This document shows, piece by piece, positions 3,016 through 19,841 of a stretch of 25,833 bases of DNA. Within the stretch, counting starts at the first letter, position 1; every line of letters starts with the position of its first letter. The notes below the pieces were generated by a model. The model ran no database searches. It saw only the letters and a list, made by a program, of their open reading frames with translations, and had not been told where the DNA came from. The stretch lies in the IMG/VR virus record IMGVR_UViG_2563366846_000009. The stretch is one strand, 5' to 3'. The position numbers and the translations under genes are program-made. The stretch comes from a virus. Its lineage: Duplodnaviria; Heunggongvirae; Uroviricota; Caudoviricetes.

Positions 3016-3593
3016 TGCGGGCCTCCTGTCGAATCGCTGCCACCTTTAACGCCACCGTGTTTATGCGTATGCACTGTGATGCCGTTTGAGGTGAAGTCGC
3101 CGCCGCTGTGCGTGATATTGCCGCTCATCTTTCCCCCTTTTGTGACGTCAATCTCGGCTGTTTTCAGAAGGTTTGTGCATTCCACGACGGGCGTATCCAG
3201 TTTCACGCTGACGGATGCCTGCAAAGTGGCCGTTTTCATGCCGCTGGCACTCAGTGCGCCTGCGTCCGCGTCGTAGCGGAACACCGCGCCATCCGGCGCG
3301 CTGACCACGATTTCTTTCAGGCTTTTGCCGGGGGCCGGACTGGCATCACTCCACAGGCTGCCAATTATCATGGCGGTTTCCGGGTTGCCGCCAATGCAGG
3401 CAATTACCACCTGTTCGCCGGGTGATGGCGGCAGCCACACATTGAAGGCTCCCGCGCGCGTGGTGTTCCAGCGCAACCAGCCTGTTTCCAGTTCGCCGCT
3501 GCGAACGCGCACGCGCCAGGACTTCTCATCAACTTCAGAGATGATCCCGGTGCGGATGATGTTGCTCAGCAGTCGCATGAGTTCTGCGCTCAC
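3012..3593 (-). CDS. V: Baseplate spike/assembly protein V
   Basis: 193-aa ORF overlapping W by 4 nt (translational coupling), position as in P2. Confidence 0.8.
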   Translation of the reverse strand: MSAELMRLLSNIIRTGIISEVDEKSWRVRVRSGELETGWLRWNTTRAGAFNVWLPPSPGEQVVIACIGGNPETAMIIGSLWSDASPAPGKSLKEIVVSAPDGAVFRYDADAGALSASGMKTATLQASVSVKLDTPVVECTNLLKTAEIDVTKGGKMSGNITHSGGDFTSNGITVHTHKHGGVKGGSDSTGGPQ

Positions 3594-4234
3594 CGTACAG
3601 CCTCCGCAATCCGGCCCAGCACCGTGTTATAAATCAGGCGCTCATCTGCCTGGCTGATACCCAGCAGCTCACGTACCGGGTAATCGGTGAAAATGCCCGG
3701 CGCAACCTGATCGCGCTCACCGAACTGATGAACGCGTGCAATACGTGCGGCCACGCCGCTGTAACCCACCGTCACACCGGAAGCATCTGCACGGGCTTTC
3801 AGGTAGCGGGCGGTGCGCAGTTTTACGAACATGGGGACGCGCTTTGTGCTGTCCTGGTTGATGCGCCGGGTGCGTATTTCCAGAAAGCGGTCGATGTCAT
3901 CCCGGTAAAACGTGCGGATGTTGTTTTTATCCTCATCCCACCCGGTGATGGTTCGCCCGTATTTCCCCGTGTCGTGATGCCAGTTTTTCAGCGTGCGTGC
4001 TTCGTTATTCCAGATAAAGCGAATGCGTTCCTGTATCCGGGTTACGCGGCGTCTGCGTGGTGTCCATGCGGTCCCGTCCGGCGCTTTCTGTGACCGGATA
4101 CGTGCCTGCTGGGCGCGACGTAAATCCTGTGCCAGCTTTCTGGCGATGTTATTGATGGCCTGCTGATTCAGGCTGTCGCGGATGGCCTCAAAGGTTTCAT
4201 CCACGCGGGTGAATGCCTTATCCATCGCTTTCAC
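3590..4234 (-). CDS. S: Virion morphogenesis / tail completion protein (S-like)
   Basis: 214-aa ORF between R and V with a basic, Arg-rich N-terminal half; assigned by synteny with P2 S. True start may be internal. Confidence 0.65.
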   Translation of the reverse strand: MKAMDKAFTRVDETFEAIRDSLNQQAINNIARKLAQDLRRAQQARIRSQKAPDGTAWTPRRRRVTRIQERIRFIWNNEARTLKNWHHDTGKYGRTITGWDEDKNNIRTFYRDDIDRFLEIRTRRINQDSTKRVPMFVKLRTARYLKARADASGVTVGYSGVAARIARVHQFGERDQVAPGIFTDYPVRELLGISQADERLIYNTVLGRIAEAVR

Positions 4235-4685
4235 CCCACGTCACATCCTGGAATACATGCGACCAGTCGCCTTCGGAAGATGGCAGGCGGGGTTTTGGCT
4301 CCGGCAGGTGTTCTGCCTGCGGCGTGCCCTGACTGCTGCGCGTGATGCGAACGCGTTCCCGCAGAGGGAGCGTAAACAGGAGATCGGCGCTGTCATCGTC
4401 ATTGATAACGGCGGAGAACTTGATGTCCTGATTACGCTCCGGATTGAGCAACAACTGCGGCTGATTTTCGGATAACCACGCCAGCAGCGGCAGCGTGAGA
4501 TCGTCCAGCTCCCCGGCGTAATCCATGACAAACATCACCATCTGATAGCGGTAAACAAACGAGGGAGTTTCTCCGGTCGTTTCAATGTTGCCGCTCTCCA
4601 CGAAAATGGTGAATTTTTCCGGGTTGGCCTGACACCATCGGCATGAACGGGTCATGGCTTCACGCAGGGAATCAGTTTTCAGCAT
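4218..4685 (-). CDS. R: Tail completion protein R
   Basis: 155-aa ORF, same length as P2 gpR, directly downstream of the lysis genes. Confidence 0.7.
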   Translation of the reverse strand: MLKTDSLREAMTRSCRWCQANPEKFTIFVESGNIETTGETPSFVYRYQMVMFVMDYAGELDDLTLPLLAWLSENQPQLLLNPERNQDIKFSAVINDDDSADLLFTLPLRERVRITRSSQGTPQAEHLPEPKPRLPSSEGDWSHVFQDVTWGESDG

Positions 4686-9755: not shown

Positions 9756-11507
9756 ATGATTCAGGACGCTTTTGTGCGCCAGCGTGCGCGACAACTTTAC
9801 TGGCAGGGGTATCCGCCCGCAGAAATATCACGTCTGATGGGAATAAACCCGAACACGATTTATGCGTGGAAAAAACGGGACCAGTGGGATGAAACGCCAC
9901 CCGTGCAGCGTGTCACGCAGTCCATCGATGCGCGCCTCATCCAGCTTACTGAAAAACAGAATAAAACAGGCGGTGACTTCAAGGAAATAGACCTGCTGAC
10001 CCGGCAGCTTAAAAAGCTGCATGATGGCCAGCCGGATGCGACGGCCGCAGGAAAGAAAGGCCGGGCGAAAAAACTCAAAAATCATTTCACGCCGGAACAG
10101 ATTGCCGCACTGCGGGAAAAAATCATCAGCAGGCTGGAGTGGCATCAGCGGGGGTGGTTTGACTCCCTGACCCTTTGCAGGGAAGCCGGGATACGTAACA
10201 GGATGATCCTGAAATCCCGACAGATTGGGGCGACCTGGTATTTTGCACAGGAAGCACTGTTGATGGCGCTGCGTGACGATGTGGCGCAACCTTACCAGCG
10301 TAACCAGATTTTTTTGTCTGCGTCGCGTCGTCAGGCGTTCCAGTTTAAAAACATTATTCAGAAGGCCGCAGCTGAAGTCGATGTGGAGCTGAAAGGGGGC
10401 GATAAAATCATCCTCTCCAACGGCGCAGAGCTGCATTTTCTCGGCACTTCTGCGGCGACGGCACAGTCCTACACGGGCAATTTCTATTTTGATGAATTTT
10501 TCTGGGTCAGTCGCTTTGCTGAACTGCGCAAGGTGGCTGGCGCTATGGCAACCCTCAGCGGACTGCGGCGCACCTACTTCTCCACGCCATCCACCGAAAC
10601 GCATGAGGCATACGTTTACTGGAACGGCGACCGCTGGAACGAGAAAAAGGCCGCGCATAAACGCCAGCGTTTTTCTGTGGACTGGAAAACGCTGCATAAC
10701 GGGCTTATCTGCCCTGACCGGACGTGGCGGCAAATTGTCACGCTGGAAGATGTGGTTAATCACGGCTGGAAACACACCGATATCGACGAAATTCGTGATG
10801 AAAACACCGAAGACGAGTTCCTCAATCTCTATATGTGTGAGTTTGTCCGCGAAGGGGAATCGGCATTTAACCTGAATATCCTGATTGGCTGCGGTGTTGA
10901 CGGATACGACGACTGGAAAGACTGGAAACCTTTTGCTCCCCGCCCGATGGGGAATCGTCCGGTATGGATTGGATATGACGCAAACGGCAGCAGTGGCAAC
11001 GGCGACAGTGGCGCTGTATCCGTGGTGGTTCCTCCGGCTGTTCCTGGTGGCCGTTTTCGAACGGTGGAGACGCGACGCGTTCAGGGGCTGGAGTTTGAAG
11101 AACAGGCCAGAGTCATTGAAGAGTTCACGTATCGCTACAACGTGGAACACATCGGCATTGATGCGACGGGCGGGCACGGGGATGCCGTTTATCAGATAGT
11201 GAAAAGGTTTTTTCCCGCTGCCATCCCGTACACCTTCACGCTGTCATCAAAACGGTCGCTGGTACTGAAAATGCTGCAAATAATGCGCGCCGGGCGGTGG
11301 GAATACGATCGCGCCGAACGCGAGCTGGTCGCAGCCTTTAACGCTGTGCGTAAGGTGAAAACACCAGGCGGTTTTATCACTTACGAAACGGACCGCGCGA
11401 GGGGGATCAGCCACGGCGACCTTGCGTGGGCAACCATGCTTGCTGTCATTAACGAACCGATTGGCGGCGAAGGAGAAAACGAGCGTTTCACGGTTATGGA
11501 GTTCTGA
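9756..11507 (+). CDS. P: Terminase ATPase (large) subunit P
   Basis: 583-aa ORF with N-terminus MIQDAFVRQRARQLYWQGYPPAEISRLMGINPNTIYAWKKRD, size and position of P2 gpP. Confidence 0.9.
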   Translation: MIQDAFVRQRARQLYWQGYPPAEISRLMGINPNTIYAWKKRDQWDETPPVQRVTQSIDARLIQLTEKQNKTGGDFKEIDLLTRQLKKLHDGQPDATAAGKKGRAKKLKNHFTPEQIAALREKIISRLEWHQRGWFDSLTLCREAGIRNRMILKSRQIGATWYFAQEALLMALRDDVAQPYQRNQIFLSASRRQAFQFKNIIQKAAAEVDVELKGGDKIILSNGAELHFLGTSAATAQSYTGNFYFDEFFWVSRFAELRKVAGAMATLSGLRRTYFSTPSTETHEAYVYWNGDRWNEKKAAHKRQRFSVDWKTLHNGLICPDRTWRQIVTLEDVVNHGWKHTDIDEIRDENTEDEFLNLYMCEFVREGESAFNLNILIGCGVDGYDDWKDWKPFAPRPMGNRPVWIGYDANGSSGNGDSGAVSVVVPPAVPGGRFRTVETRRVQGLEFEEQARVIEEFTYRYNVEHIGIDATGGHGDAVYQIVKRFFPAAIPYTFTLSSKRSLVLKMLQIMRAGRWEYDRAERELVAAFNAVRKVKTPGGFITYETDRARGISHGDLAWATMLAVINEPIGGEGENERFTVMEF

Positions 11508-12553
11508 TGAGCAGAAAAAATAAAAAAGTGCGCATGAGTTCACGCATTGATCTCGCTGATGTGCTCAGGAAAGAATCGTCGCTCAGTGCATTCACATTTG
11601 ATGGTCCTTACCGCCTGACCGGGCATGATTTGCTGGACAATATGTACTGTGCTGATAACGGTCGGTGGTATGAAACCCCGGTGGACTGGTACGGTCTGGC
11701 AAGAGCAGCCCGGCAAACGTCCTGGCATCAGTCTGCGCTTTACTTTAAGCGTAATGTATTGCTCGGTTGCTATATTCCGCACCCGCTGCTTTCCCGGCAG
11801 GATTTCTCGGCGCTGGCGCTGGACTGGTTTGTGTTCGGTAACGCATTCCTTGAGCTTCGAAGCAATATGCTCGGCGAACCACTTAAATTACGGCACGCCC
11901 TGGCGAAATACATGCGACGCGGAAGCGATCTTGAATCATGGTGGTATGTGCAGGATGGCAAGGACGCGTTTCAGTTTCGCCCTGGCAAAGTGTGCCACCT
12001 GATGAATCCTGACATTAACCAGGAAATCTACGGCATGCCGGAATATCTCGGCGCATTACTCTCGGCCAGCCTGTCTCATTCGGCGGACATGTTCAGAAAA
12101 CTGTATTACGACAACGGCTCCCACGCCGGGTGCATCATCTACATCGGTGCAGCGCAGGTAAGCCGCGAAAGCATGGACTCCCTGAAGGAAACGCTACAGG
12201 GTGCGCGTGGTGGTGGTGCATTTAAAAACGTGCTCATTCATGCGCCCAACGGGGGCAAAGAGGGGGTGCAAATTTTGCCGTTCCAGCAGATCACCGCAAA
12301 GGATGAGTTCATGAATGTTAAGGCGGCATCCCGTGATGATGTGCTGGCTGCGCACCGCGTTCCGCCGCAACTGATGGGGGCGATGCCGGGTGAAAAAAGT
12401 GCGTTTGGTGATGTGGAGAAGGCCGCGCGGGTTTACGCAATTAACGAGCTGATGCCCGTCATGGAGGCCATGAAGCACATCAATGACTGGCTTGGCGAAG
12501 AGGTGATCCGTTTTAACTCTTATGCACTTCTTGATGAAAAAACAGCCCCGTGA
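11507..12553 (+). CDS. Q: Portal protein Q
   Basis: 348-aa ORF overlapping the P stop by one base, size and position of P2 gpQ. Confidence 0.9.
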   Translation: MSRKNKKVRMSSRIDLADVLRKESSLSAFTFDGPYRLTGHDLLDNMYCADNGRWYETPVDWYGLARAARQTSWHQSALYFKRNVLLGCYIPHPLLSRQDFSALALDWFVFGNAFLELRSNMLGEPLKLRHALAKYMRRGSDLESWWYVQDGKDAFQFRPGKVCHLMNPDINQEIYGMPEYLGALLSASLSHSADMFRKLYYDNGSHAGCIIYIGAAQVSRESMDSLKETLQGARGGGAFKNVLIHAPNGGKEGVQILPFQQITAKDEFMNVKAASRDDVLAAHRVPPQLMGAMPGEKSAFGDVEKAARVYAINELMPVMEAMKHINDWLGEEVIRFNSYALLDEKTAP

Positions 12554-12570
12554 TGGGGCTGTCCTTTTTA
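12540..12570. terminator. Bidirectional intrinsic terminator between convergent Q and the 174-aa gene
   Basis: Hairpin cagccccgtgatggggctg flanked by an A-run upstream and tccttttta downstream, so it reads as stem plus U-tract on both strands. The Q stop codon sits in the loop. Confidence 0.6.
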
Positions 12571-13092
12571 CCAGAGTTGAACCATTTTCTGGGTGCCGTC
12601 AGGCTTGAGATTATCAATTTCAGAGAGAACGTAATATTGAATGGCTTCACAAACGGTGGTGTATGGTGAATTACCTTCTTTAAGTGGCACGATATTATTA
12701 TTAACGCGAACCTGTATTTCATCGTTATACATTGCGATCGAAAGAGGAGTATGTACGAACGCGACTTCGCCAGGTGTGTCGTCAACCACTGTCTCAATGC
12801 TAAAAGTCAGTTTTCGCTCATCATTGCTGCCTCTTGCTTTGGGGGTTGCGGCAGGAATCTGGGATAAAGGCATTCTGCGAAATCCTTCGGCCGTTTCCAG
12901 TCCGCATGAAACGTAATGCTGGCGATTACCGTCGATATCTGTCCACGCTTGTGACGGCAGATCCAGCGAGATTTCATAAGCATCAACAATTCCCTGGGCA
13001 AGGCGTACAAGCGGGGTCAGGTCTTCATTGCGGCGAAAGCTCTCCTTTACCTGCTCTCGTTTTTCTCTTAACTGCTTGTAATTAATGACCAT
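12568..13092 (-). CDS. Hypothetical 174-aa protein, low-GC cargo gene next to the portal
   Basis: ORF with ATG at 13092 preceded by GGAGG at 8-nt spacing; the track extends it to a GTG at 13131. No recognisable motif. Markedly AT-richer than flanking phage genes. Confidence 0.55.
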   Translation of the reverse strand: MVINYKQLREKREQVKESFRRNEDLTPLVRLAQGIVDAYEISLDLPSQAWTDIDGNRQHYVSCGLETAEGFRRMPLSQIPAATPKARGSNDERKLTFSIETVVDDTPGEVAFVHTPLSIAMYNDEIQVRVNNNIVPLKEGNSPYTTVCEAIQYYVLSEIDNLKPDGTQKMVQLW

Positions 13093-13193
13093 AAGACAGC
13101 CTCCATTGATTTCTTTGCTCGTATTTTGCACTTATGAAGTGTGGTCGGCAAGGTGTCGCATCACTGACGCGCTTCGCTTGTCTGCTGCTTCGC

Positions 13194-13216
13194 CGGGGCA
13201 TAAAAAATTTATGCCC
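13194..13216. other. Perfect 10-bp-stem hairpin upstream of the 174-aa gene
   Basis: ggggcataaa aaa tttatgcccc, about 100 bp upstream of the start at 13092. No adjacent T-run on either strand. Confidence 0.4.
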
Positions 13217-13504
13217 CGACTCTCCAGCTCCTGTATCAATCAGATAATTTCACAACGCCTTCCAGCTTATCGCCATCATCGACGGCCAGGCTCTTACGCA
13301 ATCCCACCGCGCTGACTGCATGTTCTCGCCGCCTCAGTGCGATTTTGACGGCCTTATCTGTCACCCCATCAAATCAAAAGCCCTCACGTCTTTTTCACGC
13401 TCAGCGTGAGAAAGACAGCCATTCTGTTGTGTCGCTGCGACATCGTTCAGGGAATGCTATTTACCCCCTGAAACGCGGGCTGTTCCCCCGTCACCTGCGC
13501 GCAG

Positions 13505-13624
13505 AAAAAACGCGTTTTTTTGTGCATGCACGGATCCTTGACGGATCCAGCCGCCATGCGGGCCGGAAGGGTAAAAAGTCGTTCAAAAAAATTGTGCAAA
13601 TTTGTGCACTATTGTGCATTGAAA
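13505..13624. promoter_or_regulatory. Cluster of palindromes and 10-bp-phased TTGTGCA direct repeats in a 520-bp non-coding region
   Basis: Palindrome aaaaaacgcgtttttt (13505..13520), palindrome gtgcatgcac (13522..13531), ggatcc-N4-ggatcc (13532..13547), then TTGTGCA at 13593, 13603 and 13613. Confidence 0.45.
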
Positions 13625-13650
13625 TAAACGCCCTGGAGGAGGGCGTTTTA
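13624..13650 (-). terminator. Intrinsic terminator downstream of the 135-aa gene
   Basis: Stem aacgccct / agggcgtt with loop ggagg directly after the stop at 13652; minus strand continues tttatttc. Confidence 0.55.
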
Positions 13651-13651
13651 C

Positions 13652-14059
13652 TTATCTTTTATAGCCTTGCCCCTTCCTGGCCAGCGCCCTGATGGCCGGG
13701 CGTGCCAACACCATATTTTGGCAATGATGAATTGCCCGGCAAAATTCATCTCTACCCATTGGATGCTCAACTGGCAACGTTAAATACAGGTTCCATGCGT
13801 CGCCTAAAAGTTGGGCTATCTTTTGTTCTTCAGATGTCAGCAAGCAAGCGGTATCCGTAAAATAATCATACTTTTCATGTATGTTATTTAACGGTTTTGT
13901 CTGTAGTGCAGCCTGAGCTATACGGTATGCCTGAAGCATACTGGCGTCGTTGATATCCATTCCGAACGGAATTTCTGATGATTGTGACTCTGCATCTTCA
14001 AGCCTGGCAATTTCTTTACGTAAGAAGTATTTCAACTCTTGTTTCTGTTTTCTGTTCAT
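13652..14059 (-). CDS. Hypothetical 135-aa protein, translationally coupled to the ClpX-zinc-finger gene
   Basis: ATG overlaps the upstream stop (ATGA at 14056..14059). Low GC. No recognisable motif. Confidence 0.6.
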
Positions 14060-14388
14060 GCGTTTTTTTCCTTTTTGTCTGTCACTTCTTTCCTGATAAT
14101 TTCATTGCACAAATCCACGCACTCATTGCAGATGTAAACAGACGGTCCGGCAATCACCTTTGTGACTTCGTACTGGGATTTATTGCAGAAACTGCAATAA
14201 ACCGTCTTCTCGCCTGAAGTCCATGTTTTGCTGGTTTCGCCAGACATCAGTTGTTTGAGGTCTTTTTCACGACGAAGAACTATCTGGCCACATTCAGCTA
14301 TTTTTTGGATGTTGACATTTTCTTCTTTCGCCAGCGCTTCCATCCGCTCAATCAGTCGCTGCGCTTTTTCTCTGTCAATGTGTTGCAT
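14056..14388 (-). CDS. Small protein with C-terminal ClpX-type C4 zinc-binding domain
   Basis: Residues [38 protein letters not shown] are near-identical to the ClpX N-terminal zinc-binding domain, with all four Cys conserved. No AAA+ module follows; the first about 55 aa are unrelated. Confidence 0.85.
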
Positions 14389-14653
14389 TGTGTCCCCCTT
14401 GTTTATGTTCCCGGGTTAAAGTCATCAGGGCGGATGCGCCCTGATGTTGTGTTATTCGGGAAATAACGCCCGGATATTTCCGGCCATCTGACTGGTTATC
14501 TGTGCGGTTGGTACTGGCTGTGACACGGGGCGTTCTGTCCTACAATCAACCTCAGAGCATGGGCTATCCGGGATGGCCTCATACCACGCCAGCGTCGACT
14601 GATAGTTTTGTGCTGCCTCACGCAGTGCCTGGTAATTAATTTCGCTCACTGGT
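14389..14653. repeat. Copy B of a duplicated module (block P 14389..14541 plus block G 14542..14653)
   Basis: Block P is about 93 percent identical to 15601..15756 (3' end of parR, intergenic hairpin, RBS and ATG of the next gene). Block G is about 90 percent identical to 15493..15603 (5' end of the 213-aa gene). Block order is swapped relative to copy A. Confidence 0.75.
14452..14649 (-). CDS. Small chimeric ORF (65 aa from a GTG start): conserved SEINYQALREAAQNYQSTLAWYEAI motif fused to a ParR-like C-terminal tail
   Basis: GTG at 14649 is preceded by GGAGG at 6-nt spacing. The N-terminal 25 aa match the 213-aa protein exactly despite six synonymous DNA changes. The C-terminal 27 aa (ERPVSQPVPTAQITSQMAGNIRALFPE) match the ParR-like protein tail. 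The track calls a longer 98-aa version from 14748. Confidence 0.4.
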   Translation of the reverse strand: MSEINYQALREAAQNYQSTLAWYEAIPDSPCSEVDCRTERPVSQPVPTAQITSQMAGNIRALFPE

Positions 14654-14965
14654 TGCCTCCTGTTTGAATCTGCGCACGGAAAGAATTGGGCATTTTGTAA
14701 TCCCGCCCTCTTTCTCCCATCGGAGGAGCGGGAATCGATATGCTTCAAAATTAAGCCCCGCAGAGCGATCGCTTTGGAAGCATTTCTTACCTACCACCCA
14801 AACGTTTTCGAATCGACGCTCAATGCGAACTGCCGTCCTCCATCCGAATGGCGCGCCTGCATTTACGGCTGCATTTTTTGTCGGAAAAGTTGGCACGGAT
14901 GACACAATTTCATCAACACGCACGCTTAGGTGGCAATCGTCGACATAACTAATTGAAGCTCTCAT
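14636..14965 (-). CDS. Hypothetical 109-aa protein, coupled to the 213-aa gene
   Basis: ATG at 14965 overlaps the 213-aa stop (ATGA). No recognisable motif. Confidence 0.5.
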   Translation of the reverse strand: MRASISYVDDCHLSVRVDEIVSSVPTFPTKNAAVNAGAPFGWRTAVRIERRFENVWVVGKKCFQSDRSAGLNFEAYRFPLLRWEKEGGITKCPILSVRRFKQEATSERN

Positions 14966-15603
14966 GACTGAACTCCTTTGCGAAGCTGCTCCGCACAATG
15001 CAGCAGGGCGTCCGTCGCTTCTTTCACCGTAACGATGTCGCCATCGTCCAGCCCGGCAACCGTCGCGTCCTTAACGAACACCGAGCAAAGGTCATTAAAC
15101 GCCTGCGCTCGTACTTCAGCCAGAAAAGCATTGGTGGCTGGGGTTTCCGGCAATAATCCGCCAACCAGTTCTATTTCTGTTCTGAACCGGGAACTAGACA
15201 CAACGCGATAAGTCAGGTTCGGCATTCTGGCTGCCACTTGCATCTCAAACTCCTCTCCAGATTCCAGCCCGGCTTCATGGGCGTAATCAAGCGGGCTTCT
15301 GACAGGCTCTGAAGCTTCGCCGCCCCAGTAAATCAGGTTCGACTTCAGCCCTGCATTCTCCGCAGCCAGCACCGCAAGATTAGCCTCCAGCTCTGCAATA
15401 CGCTTGTTTTGGGCTTCCCGCTCATCCAGCAGCTCGGCGATAATGTCCATTTCCTGATGACGGATTTGACGCTTAAACGCCGCCACTGCTTCGCTACAAT
15501 CCTGCTCAGCATTTGGGTTATCCGTGATGGCCTCATACCACGCCAGCGTCGATTGATAGTTTTGTGCCGCCTCACGTAATGCCTGATAGTTGATTTCGCT
15601 CAT
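14962..15603 (-). CDS. Hypothetical 213-aa protein with conserved N-terminal motif and central coiled-coil-like region
   Basis: ATG preceded by AAGGAG. Heptad-like stretch REAQNKRIAELEANLAVLAAENAGLKSNL and an acidic C-terminal half. Possible resemblance to Ead/Ea22-like prophage proteins is unverified. Confidence 0.65.
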   Translation of the reverse strand: MSEINYQALREAAQNYQSTLAWYEAITDNPNAEQDCSEAVAAFKRQIRHQEMDIIAELLDEREAQNKRIAELEANLAVLAAENAGLKSNLIYWGGEASEPVRSPLDYAHEAGLESGEEFEMQVAARMPNLTYRVVSSSRFRTEIELVGGLLPETPATNAFLAEVRAQAFNDLCSVFVKDATVAGLDDGDIVTVKEATDALLHCAEQLRKGVQS

Positions 15604-15756
15604 TATGTCGTTCTCCTTGTTTATGCTCTGAGGTGGAGATCAGGACGAACTCGCCCTGACGTTGTGTTATTCAGGAAATAACGCCCGGATATTTTCAGCC
15701 ATCTGACTGGTTATCTGTGCGGTTGGTGCTGGCTGTGACACGGGGCGTTCCGTCCT
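15493..15756. repeat. Copy A of the duplicated module (block G 15493..15603, block P 15601..15756)
   Basis: Counterpart of 14389..14653; includes the imperfect hairpin caggacgaactcgccctg just after the parR stop. Confidence 0.75.
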
Positions 15757-15978
15757 GTTTTGTGTCACTGATAACGCCTCATCGTCAGCCCATGCAGCCA
15801 GTCGGTAAGCCTCTGCCGGATTCATTTTCAGAAGTGCCAGCCCGGCCATAAAAGCCACGCGTTGACCGCTTTTGTGGGCTTCTGGTGTAAGGCTGTCCAG
15901 CCAGGCGCATGCTTCGCCTTCGTTCTTGACGGCGGCGGGCTTCAGATAGAAACTTATCCTCCTGGTTGATGTCGCCAT
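15667..15978 (-). CDS. parR: ParR-like partition adaptor
   Basis: ATG at 15978 sits 4 nt after the parM stop with AAGGAG upstream. The 103-aa product aligns by eye with plasmid R1 ParR (ISFYLKP..., AGLAL..., C-terminal NIRALFPE versus ILRSLFPKE). The track shows a longer ORF from 16113. Confidence 0.7.
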   Translation of the reverse strand: MATSTRRISFYLKPAAVKNEGEACAWLDSLTPEAHKSGQRVAFMAGLALLKMNPAEAYRLAAWADDEALSVTQNRTERPVSQPAPTAQITSQMAENIRALFPE

Positions 15979-15982
15979 TGAT

Positions 15983-16942
15983 TTACTCCTTGTCCATTGC
16001 GTGCAGCCCATTAACCAGAGCAAACTGTGGCACCCCGTCCGCAATGAAAGTCGCATTAACTCCGCAGGCTTCGCGGATAGCGGGTGCCACAATCTCCGCT
16101 CCTCCACCGACAACCATCACCCGCCCGTAACCCGAAAAAACCGCCAGCGCGCGGATCACGCGTTGCTTCAGTGTTTCTTCCTTTTCACGAATAACCGCCA
16201 TCAGGCTGGCGTAATGCGCGTCATTGTGGATGTGCTGGCGCAGCCAGGCTTCATCATGGCGATGTTCGATAATGGTATTGGCGATGTGGTGACTGGTGCG
16301 CATACCGTTAGTGGCCATCACCGACAGTACGGCATCGGCCATCAGAGAAACGCCTACGTGTGGATCGCAAAACACCTGGCTGATACCTGCCAGTTGCCCC
16401 TGAACCTTTGCCACATCCAGCGTGGTTCCGCCCAAATCCACAATCAGCAGGGATTCAAACGGACTCATGTCAGCCAGTGCCTTAAAGCCAGCCGGAATGG
16501 ATTCAGGCATAACCCGCACGTTACGGATAGTGAATGCTTCGCCGTTCTGGTACTTCACCGGGCGCATAACGTTCGCTTTTTTGCGGTTGATGTTGGCCAT
16601 GTCCGGCTGTGCGTTTGTGTCGAAATACTCGCTCAGTGGCAGGGTGACAACCACATCCACCTCCTGTGGCGTGATGCCTGATTTGACCAGCGCGTGATGA
16701 ATGGCAATGACATTCACATCACTGTACTGGTATTGCGTGTCGGTTGTCTGGACAAAGCGATCGCTGACCGGATCAAAACCATAGCGCACGCCATCAAGCA
16801 TGTAGTTCGCGGGCTGCGTGCCACCGAACGGCGCAGACCATTCCGACTTGAAGCTGTTCGGGCTGATAGCGTTGCGGCGTTCGCCGTTCTCAGTCCATGC
16901 CAGCTTGATGTTGGTGGAGCCGTCGTCGATACAAATTTTCAT
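15983..16942 (-). CDS. parM: ParM/StbA actin-like partition ATPase
   Basis: 319-aa protein with extensive colinear similarity to R1 ParM: IDDGSTNIKL, ISPNSFK, YSDVNV, HHAL, MPESIPAG, SLLI(V/I)DLGGTTLD, LSGIS, GVSL, GGGAE, LVNG. Confidence 0.9.
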   Translation of the reverse strand: MKICIDDGSTNIKLAWTENGERRNAISPNSFKSEWSAPFGGTQPANYMLDGVRYGFDPVSDRFVQTTDTQYQYSDVNVIAIHHALVKSGITPQEVDVVVTLPLSEYFDTNAQPDMANINRKKANVMRPVKYQNGEAFTIRNVRVMPESIPAGFKALADMSPFESLLIVDLGGTTLDVAKVQGQLAGISQVFCDPHVGVSLMADAVLSVMATNGMRTSHHIANTIIEHRHDEAWLRQHIHNDAHYASLMAVIREKEETLKQRVIRALAVFSGYGRVMVVGGGAEIVAPAIREACGVNATFIADGVPQFALVNGLHAMDKE

Positions 16943-16971
16943 GTCGCTTTTCCTTATGTTGATTAATTAAT

Positions 16972-17086
16972 CGTTTACGGGATTCTGAAATCCCGCTTTT
17001 GCCTGTTTTGTGCGCGCTTCATATATCGCGGCACGTTTTTTGCTCATTTACGGGATTTGTGAATCCCGTTTTTGTCTGTTTTTTGT
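16972..17086. repeat. Two tandem about 40-bp repeats, each a 7-bp-stem hairpin plus T-tract, between the parM start and the A stop
   Basis: R1 at 16972..17012 (cgggatt ctga aatcccg, then cttttgcctgttttgtg) and R2 at 17044..17086 (cgggatt tgtg aatcccg, then tttttgtctgttttttg). R2 lies inside the last about 22 codons of the A ORF. Confidence 0.6.
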
Positions 17087-19841
17087 TTCCACTGGTCAGG
17101 CCACCCCGCAGCAGGTCTGCTTTGCGGCGGGCGCGTTCAGTGGTTTCACTGATTCTCTGTGTGTGCTCTGCGTCGCGGATGGCGCGCAGCATGTCAGAAA
17201 GCACGGTAACGGGGGTTTTCATGGTGTTCTGGCCCTGCTGAAGTGTGGATGCCAGGCGTGCGGCGGCTTCAGGGGCTGATGCCCCCAGCTGTTCCAGATA
17301 GCTGGCGACCGGGTTATGGCGGATCTCCGTGCTGCTTACGCCGTGATTGCGGCTCAGGCGCTGCCAGAGCTGCGTGATTCGGCTGTCCTGGCGGGTATCC
17401 GGTTTGCGTACAATTTCAAATCCCTGCGGTGCAATGATGCTGCCGTCAACGTACAGACTGCCGCCCCGTAACAGGTGCTGCATCTGCTGTTCACCGATAT
17501 GCAGGCCGAGAGATTCAGCAGACTCCCGCCATTCTTTAGCGAGTAATTCGTGGTTATCAGGCAAAGTCCGCTGCTGTTTGCGGCTCTGTGTCCAGCTCTG
17601 CATTTCATCACTGCTGTTTTTTGCCTGTTTGTCACGAAGCGAACGCATCAGCGTCCGGCGTTCGTGCCGTTTCAGTGAGCGCATCCATTCGTTCACTTCA
17701 ACGCCGTCAGGGAGCTGCGGCCACGGTGCTGACCGTTCTTCCGGCTGTTCTGTCCCGTTGTTGTCCGTTTCCTGTACACGAGGACAGTTATTGCCACGAG
17801 TCCAAGGGGCGGCAGGGCCGCCCTGAAGGTCAAAACCATTTTCGCGGGCGCTGTCTTCCGCTTCCGGTTTACGTCTTACCAGCTTCCAGTTATCCGGATG
17901 CGTGCACACACGGGAGGATTCCCCGATGAGTGGTGACCAGATCCCGTAAATCTGTACGCTCTGTTCGCCGTAATCGTTCAGCTCATCTGCGAGGTCGTAG
18001 GCGGTGCGAATCAGGTAGTCTTTACGTGGAACAAGTACGCCACCCTGTTTTTCAATGTAGGTGGCAAAACACCCGGCATCAGCGGCAGCAAGAACCGCAT
18101 CCATTGCGTCATCCTTCAGCCGTTGCGGGCCTTCCGGGTTGCGTGCCATCTGGCTGGCAAGGCGGCGCAGTTCACGCCACACCTGACGGGAGGGGATGCC
18201 AAAGAACTGGAACTGGCGGACCCGGTGAAGGCGCGCCCAGCCGATGGCGCGCTCCACGCTCTCGGCCATTGATTTTCCGGTTTCGTGGTCAACGCGTGGT
18301 TTGCCCGTTTTCGGGTCGATGCCATCCACGGCGCGGCTGTCCAGGTTCTTTCCGATGTAGGTGGCGATGTAGCTGGTTGGCGTGCCTTTTGAGCCGTCGA
18401 CATACTCCGCCTTAAAGCGCGGAGTTATGTCATTGCCCAGCTCGTGGCGGTCTTCGCGAATGGCAATATCACGGGTGATGTCCACGATGCTGTCGATTTC
18501 TTCAGGATGTGCAAAGACCATCATGTGCCAGTGCACCGTGCCTTCATGATGAGGCTCCGCCGTGCGGATGCCATACCAGCGCAGGCCGTCGCGGTTCAGT
18601 TTTTTGCGGACCGCCGCAAAAAACGTGTTAACCAGGTAATCGCTGGAGTCGCGCATGGTGGCCCCGTTCCATTTGGGGTTCGGATGACCGTTCTCCGTTG
18701 TTGCGTGGTATTTTGACGGGCAGGTGACAGTCAGAAACACCGCTTTGTCACCACGGGCTTCGGCCAGAAGTTCCAGCCCCTTCATGGTGGCCATCATTTC
18801 TGCCTTACGGTGAACCGGGTTACTTACTCCCGCGTAATACACTGTCTCGAGATCAATCGTGAACCCGTCTTCATTTTCCAGCATGAAACTTTTCAGGAAA
18901 TCGCGTGTTTTCTCGCGCTGTGCGCGAAACTCGCTTAACGCGTCCTGGCTCAGATAGGGTGATGTTTTTCTGGAAACCAGACAGGCGGCGCGGAGTTGTT
19001 CTTCCCGCCACTCACAACGTAACAGCCACAGTTTTCGTTTCCACCATTCCGCACAGGTCAGGCGAAGGATTGCGCCCGGCAGCAGCTCCGTGTCCGGTTC
19101 GTTCCTCTGGTCTTTGTCTGTTGTCAGTGCGTCATAATGTGGAGGCATGGCGTGCAGGTGTAACGCCATGCGGGCCAGCATCTGATACGCCTTCAGGGTT
19201 ACATCCATGGTCAGCTCGCCATCGGTCGCGCCAAAGCCATCGCAGAGTTTTTCGAAGGTGCTGCTGAACATCGCCGCCGTCATGGTGGCCAGCGTCTGTA
19301 TCTGGTGCTTGTTGAGCTGCGGCAGGTAAAGCAAATCGTCCAGGCGTTCGCGTCCGGCAAGGGAGCGATAACCCGGTGTCAGCCAGCGGCTGTCGGTGCG
19401 GTCCAGACGTTCGAATATTTTGCGCAGGGTTCCGCGTGCATAGCGTTCCGCCTGCCAGCTCTTTTTGCCTTTCCGGCGATCGGCTTCCTGTTTTTTGCGC
19501 AGGAAGGAGAGGTGGCGAATAAGCGGATCGCGCAGATAGGACGGCAGCAGGCGCAGCGAGGCCATGGCTTCATCCACCGCACCGCGTGCCTGTTTTCTGG
19601 CGTCTCCTGCCAGTGTGATGGTTTTGTCCTGTTTTTCCTGTGCGTCCAGGCTTTTATTAATCAGGTTGCCCAGCGGCGTGGCGGAGAACGCCGCATCAGC
19701 CATTTCCTGGCGGCGCTCGTTCTCTGCCCGGTAGGCATCCAGCCAGGAGGAAAGCGCGGATTCAGGAGCGGGGATCCCCGTTCCTTCACGCCCGACTGCG
19801 TGGCGCGGTTGTTGCCAGTCCCTGATGTACTCTGCCGTCAT
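17019..19841 (-). CDS. A: Replication initiator A (rolling-circle, HUH-type)
   Basis: 940-aa ORF containing EPHHEGTVHWHMMVF and YIATYIGKN, matching conserved P2 gpA motifs. True start may be internal; the ORF is longer than P2 gpA. Confidence 0.85.
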   Translation of the reverse strand: MTAEYIRDWQQPRHAVGREGTGIPAPESALSSWLDAYRAENERRQEMADAAFSATPLGNLINKSLDAQEKQDKTITLAGDARKQARGAVDEAMASLRLLPSYLRDPLIRHLSFLRKKQEADRRKGKKSWQAERYARGTLRKIFERLDRTDSRWLTPGYRSLAGRERLDDLLYLPQLNKHQIQTLATMTAAMFSSTFEKLCDGFGATDGELTMDVTLKAYQMLARMALHLHAMPPHYDALTTDKDQRNEPDTELLPGAILRLTCAEWWKRKLWLLRCEWREEQLRAACLVSRKTSPYLSQDALSEFRAQREKTRDFLKSFMLENEDGFTIDLETVYYAGVSNPVHRKAEMMATMKGLELLAEARGDKAVFLTVTCPSKYHATTENGHPNPKWNGATMRDSSDYLVNTFFAAVRKKLNRDGLRWYGIRTAEPHHEGTVHWHMMVFAHPEEIDSIVDITRDIAIREDRHELGNDITPRFKAEYVDGSKGTPTSYIATYIGKNLDSRAVDGIDPKTGKPRVDHETGKSMAESVERAIGWARLHRVRQFQFFGIPSRQVWRELRRLASQMARNPEGPQRLKDDAMDAVLAAADAGCFATYIEKQGGVLVPRKDYLIRTAYDLADELNDYGEQSVQIYGIWSPLIGESSRVCTHPDNWKLVRRKPEAEDSARENGFDLQGGPAAPWTRGNNCPRVQETDNNGTEQPEERSAPWPQLPDGVEVNEWMRSLKRHERRTLMRSLRDKQAKNSSDEMQSWTQSRKQQRTLPDNHELLAKEWRESAESLGLHIGEQQMQHLLRGGSLYVDGSIIAPQGFEIVRKPDTRQDSRITQLWQRLSRNHGVSSTEIRHNPVASYLEQLGASAPEAAARLASTLQQGQNTMKTPVTVLSDMLRAIRDAEHTQRISETTERARRKADLLRGGLTSGNKKQTKTGFTNPVNEQKTCRDI

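Follow-up and report, generated by a model that had tools for sequence, protein, structure and literature searches.

A stand-alone ClpX-type zinc-binding domain protein of P88-type prophages and its possible role as a decoy for ClpX clients

Why would a temperate phage encode the host ATPase ClpX's zinc-binding domain (ZBD) as a small protein of its own? The question is raised by a gene at positions 14056 to 14388 (minus strand) of IMG/VR record IMGVR_UViG_2563366846_000009, a stretch of 25,833 nucleotides (nt) referred to here as the window, which is a P88-type, P2-like prophage (Peduoviridae, Xuanwuvirus) of Escherichia coli. The product is a 110-amino acid (aa) protein, named 'ClpX C4-type zinc finger protein' in RefSeq (WP_001163782; annotation in L001) and matching phrog_6797 across its full length (E=2.1e-58). 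The existence of the family is thus already on record, in the RefSeq annotation, in PHROG 6797 and in a published supplementary table. The answer that we tentatively favor, at a likelihood approaching but not reaching an even one, is that the 110-aa protein would serve as a decoy or broad anti-adaptor, competing with ClpX for the clients of its ZBD. Below, the identity of the domain and the constraint on it are described first, followed by the proposed mechanism, the behavior of the gene across genomes and the setting in which it is found. All genes of the window described here lie on its minus strand unless stated otherwise.

A ClpX-type domain behind a family-specific helical hairpin

Sequence, cysteine pattern and fold all identify the 110-aa protein as a true member of PF06689 (zf-C4_ClpX). 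Residues 64-99 align with positions 2-38 of the 39 in the Pfam profile, with a score of 64.7 bits against a cut-off of 27 (E=6.8e-18), and the best phmmer match in the Protein Data Bank (PDB) is the E. coli ClpX ZBD, 1ovx (E=6.9e-20). The domain itself, delimited by identity to ClpX, by Foldseek and by invariant columns, spans residues 62-101 (14086 to 14205) and is 78% identical to residues 11-51 of E. coli ClpX over 41 aligned residues. All four cysteines are retained; C65, C68, C87 and C90 align with the zinc ligands of ClpX and are invariant in 13-14 family members. The two ClpX pocket residues also have counterparts, F67 for F16, invariant or nearly so across the family, and I97 for I46, at a position occupied by I or V. 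An earlier reading of the window, made from the sequence alone, had described the domain as a near-perfect copy of the ClpX ZBD; the domain is indeed bona fide, with its four cysteines, but an identity of 78% makes 'near-perfect' an overstatement. The same reading was right that there is no AAA+ module. The protein is only 110 aa long and scores 51 bits against a cut-off of 370.75 for TIGR00382, the NCBIfam equivalog model of ClpX, with residues 60-108 covering positions 6-54 of 414, and it is therefore not a ClpX ATPase.

An AlphaFold2 (AF2) model made from 14 family sequences, with a mean predicted local distance difference test score (pLDDT) of 81, divides the protein into an N-terminal domain (residues 4-49; 14242 to 14379), a flexible linker (residues 50-61; 14206 to 14241) and the ZBD. 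Foldseek placed the modeled ZBD on the crystal structures 2ds5-2ds8 with root-mean-square deviations of 0.6-1.2 Å over 38-43 columns and template modeling (TM) scores, relative to the target, of 0.85-0.91; 2ds8 is the E. coli ZBD crystallized in complex with the XB peptide of SspB. Agreement with the nuclear magnetic resonance structure 1ovx was also obtained (1.7 Å, TM 0.72), and the treble-clef fold is present, as is the zinc-site geometry, whose absence from structural models the sequence-only reading had named as grounds for giving up its idea. The linker, which has pLDDT values below 50 at residues 55-59, differs in length by more than 10 residues across the family.

The N-terminal domain, defined by AF2 and phmmer, is modeled as a hairpin of two helices, residues 6-22 and 27-49, with block-mean pLDDT values of 71-94. 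When residues 1-60 were compared by phmmer with 1.84 billion representative proteins, only 12 matches were obtained, 11 of them family members or fragments and the last a spurious eukaryotic repeat protein, so that by this measure of sequence similarity the two-helix domain is confined to the ZBD protein family. Within the family it is kept, though divergent, in every member. The idea of a ribbon-helix-helix domain resembling Arc or CopG was rejected, as no ribbon-helix-helix or helix-turn-helix (HTH) family was matched in Pfam at E<=1 and helix 1 of the AF2 model begins at residue 6, leaving residues 1-5 as polar coil where the strand would have to be.

Comparison of the ZBD codons with those of K-12 clpX gave 67% identity in DNA and 78% in protein, with saturated synonymous differences (pS=0.95) and few nonsynonymous ones (pN=0.17). 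Recent capture from E. coli clpX is ruled out by the saturation of synonymous sites, and the codon pattern indicates that the ZBD sequence is held under purifying selection. The constraint is also apparent in diverged members of the family, whose N-terminal domains are just 13-26% identical to that of the window, while their ZBDs remain 66-88% identical to E. coli ClpX. Compared with the ZBD of the window, these same ZBDs are 61-80% identical, generally below their identity to E. coli ClpX; the one low figure, 49% for L083, is an artefact, since the comparison was ungapped and ran over a one-residue insertion. Together, the closeness of the diverged ZBDs to ClpX and the synonymous saturation point to selection for mimicry. 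If the protein left ClpX clients alone, the constraint that keeps its ZBD ClpX-like would need explaining.

Competition for ClpX clients as a possible function

Published work on ClpX suggests what a free ZBD could do. The ZBD of ClpX dimerizes by itself and is not needed for ssrA tags (PMC5415555, PMC7226468, PMC7804408), and its deletion abolishes adaptor-dependent but not ssrA-dependent degradation (PMC7226468). Lambda O, SspB, RssB and trigger factor use a hydrophobic pocket made up of F16 and I46 (PMC7804408), and the ClpX N-domain is important in recognition of MuA (PMC5415555). Purified ClpX ZBD added in trans inhibits RssB-dependent degradation of σS by ClpXP (PMC7226468, Fig. 1d), a result that makes a decoy role mechanistically plausible. 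According to our proposal, the phage ZBD would fold and dimerize as the host domain does, and would present a hydrophobic pocket to the XB motifs of adaptors (SspB, RssB) and to ZBD-dependent substrates of the lambda O and MuA types. Competition with ClpX would then lower adaptor- and ZBD-dependent proteolysis or remodeling, leaving substrates recognized at the pore, such as those with ssrA tags, untouched. The tethered two-helix domain would most likely add either self-association, and with it avidity, or a second contact with a host target; its target would be host-encoded or the protein itself, because the three unrelated types of phage in which the gene occurs have no conserved phage neighbor in common (see below). 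We infer dimerization, client binding and an effect in vivo, from which lysogen stress physiology, phage early proteins or neighboring ClpXP-labile antitoxins are possible beneficiaries.

Several points weigh against a decoy role. Inhibition in vitro was obtained with 5-20 µM ZBD against 0.6 µM ClpXP, a 10- to 30-fold excess (PMC7226468), and no σ70-like promoter could be detected immediately upstream of the ZBD gene and the 135-aa gene that follows it. A pure decoy would not need a conserved N-terminal domain, and the occurrence of minimal, ZBD-only phage genes, such as the 65-aa gene in the nin region of Pseudomonas phage PP9W2, shows that this domain is an addition with a role of its own. 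Nine of the 41 ZBD residues differ from those of E. coli ClpX. Other proteins use the ZBD too, in some cases as a fusion with HTH or ParB-like domains, and such reuse means that the fold alone is no proof of an interaction with ClpX clients. Finally, our literature searches found no paper on a phage stand-alone ZBD, on 'zf-C4_ClpX' or on the functions of P88 genes.

The same properties could be put to a different use. As a recruiter or re-programmer, which the sequence-only reading had offered beside the decoy, the phage ZBD would form mixed dimers with the ZBDs of ClpX subunits and tether its N-terminal domain, along with anything bound to it, to the hexamer, which would thereby be blocked or supplied with new substrates. 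Consistent with such a role, the ZBD is a dimerization domain (crosslinking in PMC7226468; also PMC5415555), the phage domain is close to that of the host and invariant at core positions, and the conserved, tethered N-terminal domain resembles the body expected of an adaptor. Neighboring ZBDs of ClpX, however, are paired at a very high local concentration, which should disfavor exchange with a free domain, and the family lacks a conserved cargo gene. Recruitment is unlikely in our view, and competition for clients remains the preferred explanation.

By analogy, the function proposed here would come closest to that of the Ira anti-adaptors and of phage inhibitors of Lon and FtsH, from which it would differ in using a copy of the protease's own docking domain. 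IraD, IraM and IraP of E. coli stabilize σS by sequestering RssB, and the outcome would be alike in that an adaptor is kept off ClpX; IraD and the ClpX ZBD have been proposed to share a docking site on RssB (PMC7226468). The Ira proteins are specific to RssB, whereas a ZBD copy would compete for every ZBD client, and no relation in sequence or fold between the Ira proteins and the 110-aa protein was found. With SspB, in which a flexible tether links a dimeric body to the ZBD-docking XB peptide, the 110-aa protein has in common the layout of body, tether and docking element, but in mirror image, since it has the receptor (ZBD) and not the ligand (XB) and would be expected to inhibit delivery. 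ClpX itself shares with the phage domain the fold, the C4 zinc site and the F16/I46 pocket. The phage ZBD, in contrast, does not sit on an AAA+ ring; it forms the C-terminal part of its protein, behind a helical domain and a tether, and this stand-alone form is encoded by phages and phage-plasmids. Phage proteins that act against Lon (T4 PinA and T7 gp4.5) or FtsH (lambda CIII) resemble it as small phage proteins that modulate a host ATP-dependent protease. They work by binding the protease itself or by competing as substrates, and to our knowledge none of the three copies a domain of its protease.

An autonomous gene and its mosaic neighbor

Does the gene travel with a partner or a fixed set of neighbors? 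It is present in 112 of 5426 complete E. coli genomes (~2%), and full-length homologues, with ~50% identity over both domains, are encoded by the P1-like phage-plasmid D6 and by SSU5-like elements of ~108 kb (PhiR41_1, CMS-2020a). Full-length homologues were likewise found in ~95 plasmid records of PLSDB. On the phage-plasmids the ZBD genes sit within strings of small Ead/Ea22, EaA and DUF4752 genes. A scan of IMG/VR for the family gave 80 loci. P88-like loci at an identity of at least 89% accounted for 31 and loci of the phage-plasmid type for 29; also recovered were two P2-like loci that lack the partition genes parM and parR (parMR; 66-70% identity), seven deeply diverged members (34-46% overall identity) in other P2-like hotspots, six of them without parMR, 11 full-length ClpX genes and one ParB-like protein with a C-terminal ZBD. 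Wherever upstream sequence was available for P88-like loci, the replication gene gpA, parM and parR preceded the ZBD gene (30/30). A Salmonella homologue (P0019, 44% identical), by comparison, is the last gene of the gpA operon and has neither parMR nor a co-oriented downstream gene. An obligate link to parMR is ruled out by the loci that lack it, and no phage-encoded neighbor is conserved across P2-like, P1-like and SSU5-like carriers. The ZBD gene thus behaves as an autonomous unit.

ClpX-type ZBDs were encountered in other architectures as well. L089 (2314-3225) encodes a 303-aa viral protein with a ClpX-type ZBD at its C-terminus and an N-terminal region that, judged by eye, is ParB-like. 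In another, distinct family, that of 136-aa proteins such as P0049 and P0098, which recurs in metagenomes and is also present on one 2.86-Mb genome contig, the ZBD is N-terminal and precedes an HTH-looking C-terminal region (…GVSWARIGEALGMTRQSAWERF…). Klebsiella phage ST846-OXA48phi9.2 (L016) has a ZBD-like frame at 2501-2710 on the plus strand, between cII and the replication genes; the frame is unannotated, the record having an overlapping minus-strand open reading frame (ORF) instead.

Toxin-antitoxin (TA) modules adjoin several of the ZBD-family genes. Phd/Doc modules do so in two unrelated arrangements, between which Doc is 57% and Phd 28% identical. In P88-like E. coli prophages the module is convergent and downstream (L009, 2579-3330; L030, L035, L040 and L041, ~3506-4254), and in L079 (1825-2630), a distant P2-like phage with a ZBD protein of only 36% identity, it is divergent and upstream. 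HicAB follows the ZBD gene in L088, L093 and L094. Phd of P1 is a ClpXP substrate (Lehnherr and Yarmolinsky 1995, as cited in PMC4803016). TA modules are abundant in the hotspot, and this alone may account for the presence of such neighbors.

In the window, the ZBD gene is followed by a 135-aa gene (13652 to 14059), and the sequence-only reading had joined the two into a translationally coupled pair with a terminator of its own. The stop of the first gene and the start of the second do overlap (GCATGAAC, an ATGA junction), and AAGGA lies upstream of the second ATG. Small genes in such regions, however, come in strings in which translational coupling is usual, and it carries no specific meaning for this pair. 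The ZBD gene has a Shine-Dalgarno sequence, AAGGGGG (14394 to 14400), read from the sequence 5 nt ahead of its ATG. Three nucleotides past the stop of the 135-aa gene begins a palindromic, terminator-like hairpin, GC-rich with a 9-bp stem and usable on both strands (13626 to 13648). In the RNA of the coding strand it has a predicted folding free energy (dG) of -19.2 kcal/mol (z -4.5) and is followed by UUUAUUU. A hairpin followed by a T-run thus lies where a terminator had been claimed, but a consensus scan scored it as a terminator on the plus strand only, so that the element is at best bidirectional. With no promoter found upstream, the pair apparently has its own end yet no start of its own.

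That the 135-aa protein is unrecognizable, as first noted, was borne out by Pfam, NCBIfam, PADLOC and the PDB, none of which gave a match. Matches in PHROGs were limited to two unannotated or misannotated halves, phrog_660 at residues 1-64 and phrog_13916 at residues 70-134 (E=8.7e-30), and the protein divides into two modules. Its N-module (residues 1-56; 13892 to 14059) is the constant part that follows the ZBD gene in most P88-like phages and is 75-93% identical to 75- to 158-aa proteins with differing C-termini. The C-module (residues 67-134; 13658 to 13861) has free-standing homologues of 75 to 86 aa, with 68-88% identity, in Hafnia, Enterobacter, Pectobacterium and Yersinia, and one of them (P0133) lies in the gpA-portal hotspot of a Pectobacterium P2-like element without a ZBD gene. 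An AF2 model of the whole protein, too weak for a fold search at a mean pLDDT of 65.9, shows two helical hairpins with a disordered joint at residues 55-72, which fits a mosaic protein.

Distribution of the two genes argues against a functional pair. Of the 31 close viral loci, 19 have the N-module behind the ZBD gene, 17 with the ATGA overlap and two with a frameshifted remnant of it, but the fusion of N- and C-modules seen in the window occurs in only three of the 31, and the exact 135-aa partner stands beside the ZBD gene in just 14 of the 112 ZBD-carrying complete E. coli genomes. Other close loci have downstream a 174-aa gene after a gap of 61 nt, a convergent Phd/Doc module, or an unrelated 118-aa ORF and then the C-module in a different fusion. 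E. coli strain 1190, like the Salmonella locus, has a ZBD gene without any co-oriented downstream gene. On phage-plasmids the downstream genes are unrelated, and in D6, SSU5-like and other P2-like elements the ZBD gene has unrelated neighbors.

A genuine two-gene system, in which the ZBD and 135-aa proteins would act in a TA-like manner or as an adaptor with its cargo under ClpXP control, is very improbable on these data. Besides the ATGA overlap, the common terminator and the frequency of the N-module, it could call on the precedent of SocA/SocB, a small two-gene operon with a conceptual tie to ClpXP, since its antitoxin is the ClpXP adaptor for the toxin (PMC4803016). The ZBD gene, unlike that operon, has no conserved partner, and the two have no sequence relation. 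The C-module occurs alone in a hotspot that lacks a ZBD gene, PADLOC gave no matches for either protein or for five neighbors, and recombination with breakpoints at the 3' end of the ZBD gene and behind the N-module accounts for the conservation of the latter. The two-gene system is thus largely refuted by distribution. We conclude that the 135-aa gene arose by recombination between an Ea-type N-module and an independent C-module, that it is hotspot cargo in its own right and that its coupling to the ZBD gene is incidental.

The junction itself varies among relatives. In L034 and L036 (3001-3372) the ZBD protein runs on into the alternative frame of the N-module (…KTHEQKTKTRVEILFT), owing to a frameshift of one base at the ATGA junction. 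Reading of one junction in different frames appears to have given both the 'THE(Q)K…' tails seen in 111-aa ZBD variants and the 'HEQKT…' starts of certain partner proteins (P0125, P0152).

The gpA-gpQ hotspot and its bearing on function

Where, then, does the ZBD gene reside, and what does its setting suggest? Both genes lie inside the interval between the replication endonuclease gene gpA (17019 to 19841; Pfam Phage_GPA, 7.9e-130) and the portal gene gpQ (11507 to 12553, plus strand; 'phage portal protein' in RefSeq at the equivalent position in L001 and P88), which in P2-like phages is documented as a hotspot whose cargo varies and is often anti-phage (PMC9122126). An 851-bp region of the locus is 97.8-99.9% identical to 14 E. 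coli chromosomes and is shared in part by phages P88 and PhiR44_2. On the minus strand, gpA is followed by a partition cassette (15667 to 16942) composed of parM (15983-16942; Pfam StbA_N, 2.5e-82, and ParM C-terminal domain, 2.1e-68) and a parR-like gene (15667-15978; Plasmid_stab_B, 3e-22), and then by an Ead/Ea22-like gene (14962-15603), a remnant ORF, the ZBD gene and the 135-aa gene. Beyond these come the terminator-like hairpin, ~500 bp of non-coding DNA and a 187-aa ORF, after which the plus-strand portal gene is reached. Across the 31 close viral loci and six relatives with annotation, the content of the hotspot varies. The earlier description of the region was accurate as to its ORFs and overlooked the family-specific N-terminal domain, the gpA-gpQ hotspot and the parMR context. 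Published supplementary data do contain the arrangement; Table S5 of Rousset et al. 2022 has an entry 'StbA + Plasmid_stab_B + zf-C4_ClpX + hypothetical' and includes WP_001163782, the very protein of the window (PMC9122126).

Residence in this hotspot raises the possibility of competition between phages, in which a decoy expressed by the lysogen would exclude superinfecting phages that need ZBD-mediated ClpX action, such as transposable phages of the Mu type. The importance of the ClpX N-domain for MuA recognition, cited above, is in keeping with it, as is the GC content of the pair (41-46% compared with 52-56% in the flanks). Locus, low GC and variable neighbors are indeed shared with the known gpA-gpQ cargo of P2-like phages, which includes old, tin, retrons and TA modules (PMC9122126). 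The pair, however, is oriented like gpA, as is P2 orf91, whereas P2 old and tin are opposite to gene A with their own promoter, and the ZBD gene is not such an own-promoter conversion cassette. It keeps the same position across distant P2-like lineages whose gpA proteins are only 32-57% identical, and the family is also found in the early accessory strings of phage-plasmids. This retained position and the phage-plasmid strings look more like a function in the life cycle or in host takeover than like rapidly swapped defense cargo. PADLOC gave no match for the ZBD protein, for which a defense role is only conjectural, and Rousset et al. list the arrangement in their supplement but mention ClpX neither in the main text nor in the table of tested systems (PMC9122126). 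Exclusion of other phages is thus a doubtful account, less probable than recruitment to ClpX.

The invariable presence of parM and parR upstream of the gene in P88-like loci suggests another use for the domain, as a mere zinc-ribbon dimerizer in a small regulator that has nothing to do with ClpX clients and acts, for example, on parMR, on the early operon or on DNA. L080 retains the order parM, parR, ZBD gene despite a ZBD allele that is 36% identical and a ParR that is 50% identical, and the fusions of ZBDs to HTH-like or ParB-like DNA-binding domains noted above show the domain in comparable company. Yet a Pfam scan of the whole 110-aa protein at E<=1 found no DNA-binding family, and the plain helical hairpin of the AF2 model leaves no space for a ribbon-helix-helix strand. 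The gene occurs without parMR in Salmonella, in other P2-like phages and on phage-plasmids. Furthermore, a mere dimerizer need not stay as ClpX-like as the diverged ZBDs are, nor retain the F16/I46 pocket, while the N-terminal domains drift so far apart. We rate a regulator of this kind as improbable, on a par with phage exclusion, and retain competition with ClpX for its clients as the favored, if tentative, reading.

Other features of the locus were noted in passing. A complete partition cassette of the ParM/ParR type (StbA/Plasmid_stab_B) directly after gpA in an integrated P2-like prophage is one of them; about a quarter of P2-like phages have such a cassette, and plasmid-like maintenance has been speculated upon (Rousset et al., PMC9122126). 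Between parR and the ZBD gene, the window has a ~1.2-kb insertion (14424-15756) carrying the Ead/Ea22-like gene (Pfam Ead_Ea22, E=1.1e-11), which is not present in L001, P88, UTI89 and others. Its borders are duplicated (14424-14541 and 15639-15756 at 91.5%; 14560-14648 and 15514-15602 at 90%), and the insertion has left a chimeric 98-aa remnant ORF (14452-14748) whose N-terminus comes from Ea22 and whose C-terminus comes from ParR. The 63-nt spacer upstream of the ZBD gene contains a hairpin with a 10-bp stem (14423 to 14446; dG -23.6 kcal/mol, z -4.4) that is identical in six of six P88-like loci, in a 91-nt alignment that is 99% identical overall. On the plus strand it scored as a terminator, and its candidate roles include an attenuator, an RNA end and a recombination site. 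A variant of this hairpin follows parR at ~15640-15661, where it precedes the inserted Ea22-like gene and is itself followed by a ribosome-binding stretch, 'CATAAACAAGGRG', similar to that of the ZBD gene. The hairpin copies look as if they formed a reusable cassette junction.

The ~500 bp of non-coding DNA (13132-13650) between the terminator of the pair and the 187-aa ORF has three copies of TTGTGCA close together (13589-13619) and, around two BamHI sites, a palindrome (~13533-13552). Neither the cohesive-end sequence of P2 nor its cos junction had a convincing match in the window, and Rfam gave nothing over 12500-17100. The ORF adjoining the portal gene (12568-13131) is a conserved hypothetical gene of ~174-187 aa whose product had no match in Pfam, NCBIfam or PADLOC; it is present in PhiR44_2, E. 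coli 1190, L023, L035 and L037 and not in L001.

What would a ClpX mimic mean for the phages that carry it? Among the processes of importance to phages and mobile elements that ClpXP controls are the setting of σS levels, clearance of ssrA-tagged proteins and turnover of SOS proteins; lambda O, Mu transposase and several antitoxins are likewise under its control, and ClpX is required by the CmdTAC phage-defense system. It is possible, though we hold this broader claim more loosely than that of a decoy activity, that temperate enterobacterial phages and phage-plasmids carry a dedicated mimic of the adaptor-docking domain of ClpX that rewires ClpXP during lysogeny or early lytic growth. If so, the effects could include raised σS, shielding of ZBD-dependent phage proteins and stabilization of ClpXP-labile antitoxins such as Phd, with a bearing on how prophages affect the stress physiology of their hosts. 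Among viral inhibitors, the protein would be the first to be made from a domain of its target protease and would represent a new principle in phage-host conflict, a decoy made from the target's own domain. Phages would have in it a widespread, natural and simple tool for switching off the adaptor-dependent branch of ClpXP with the basal branch left intact, which would also provide a ready reagent for the dissection of ZBD-dependent proteolysis in vivo.

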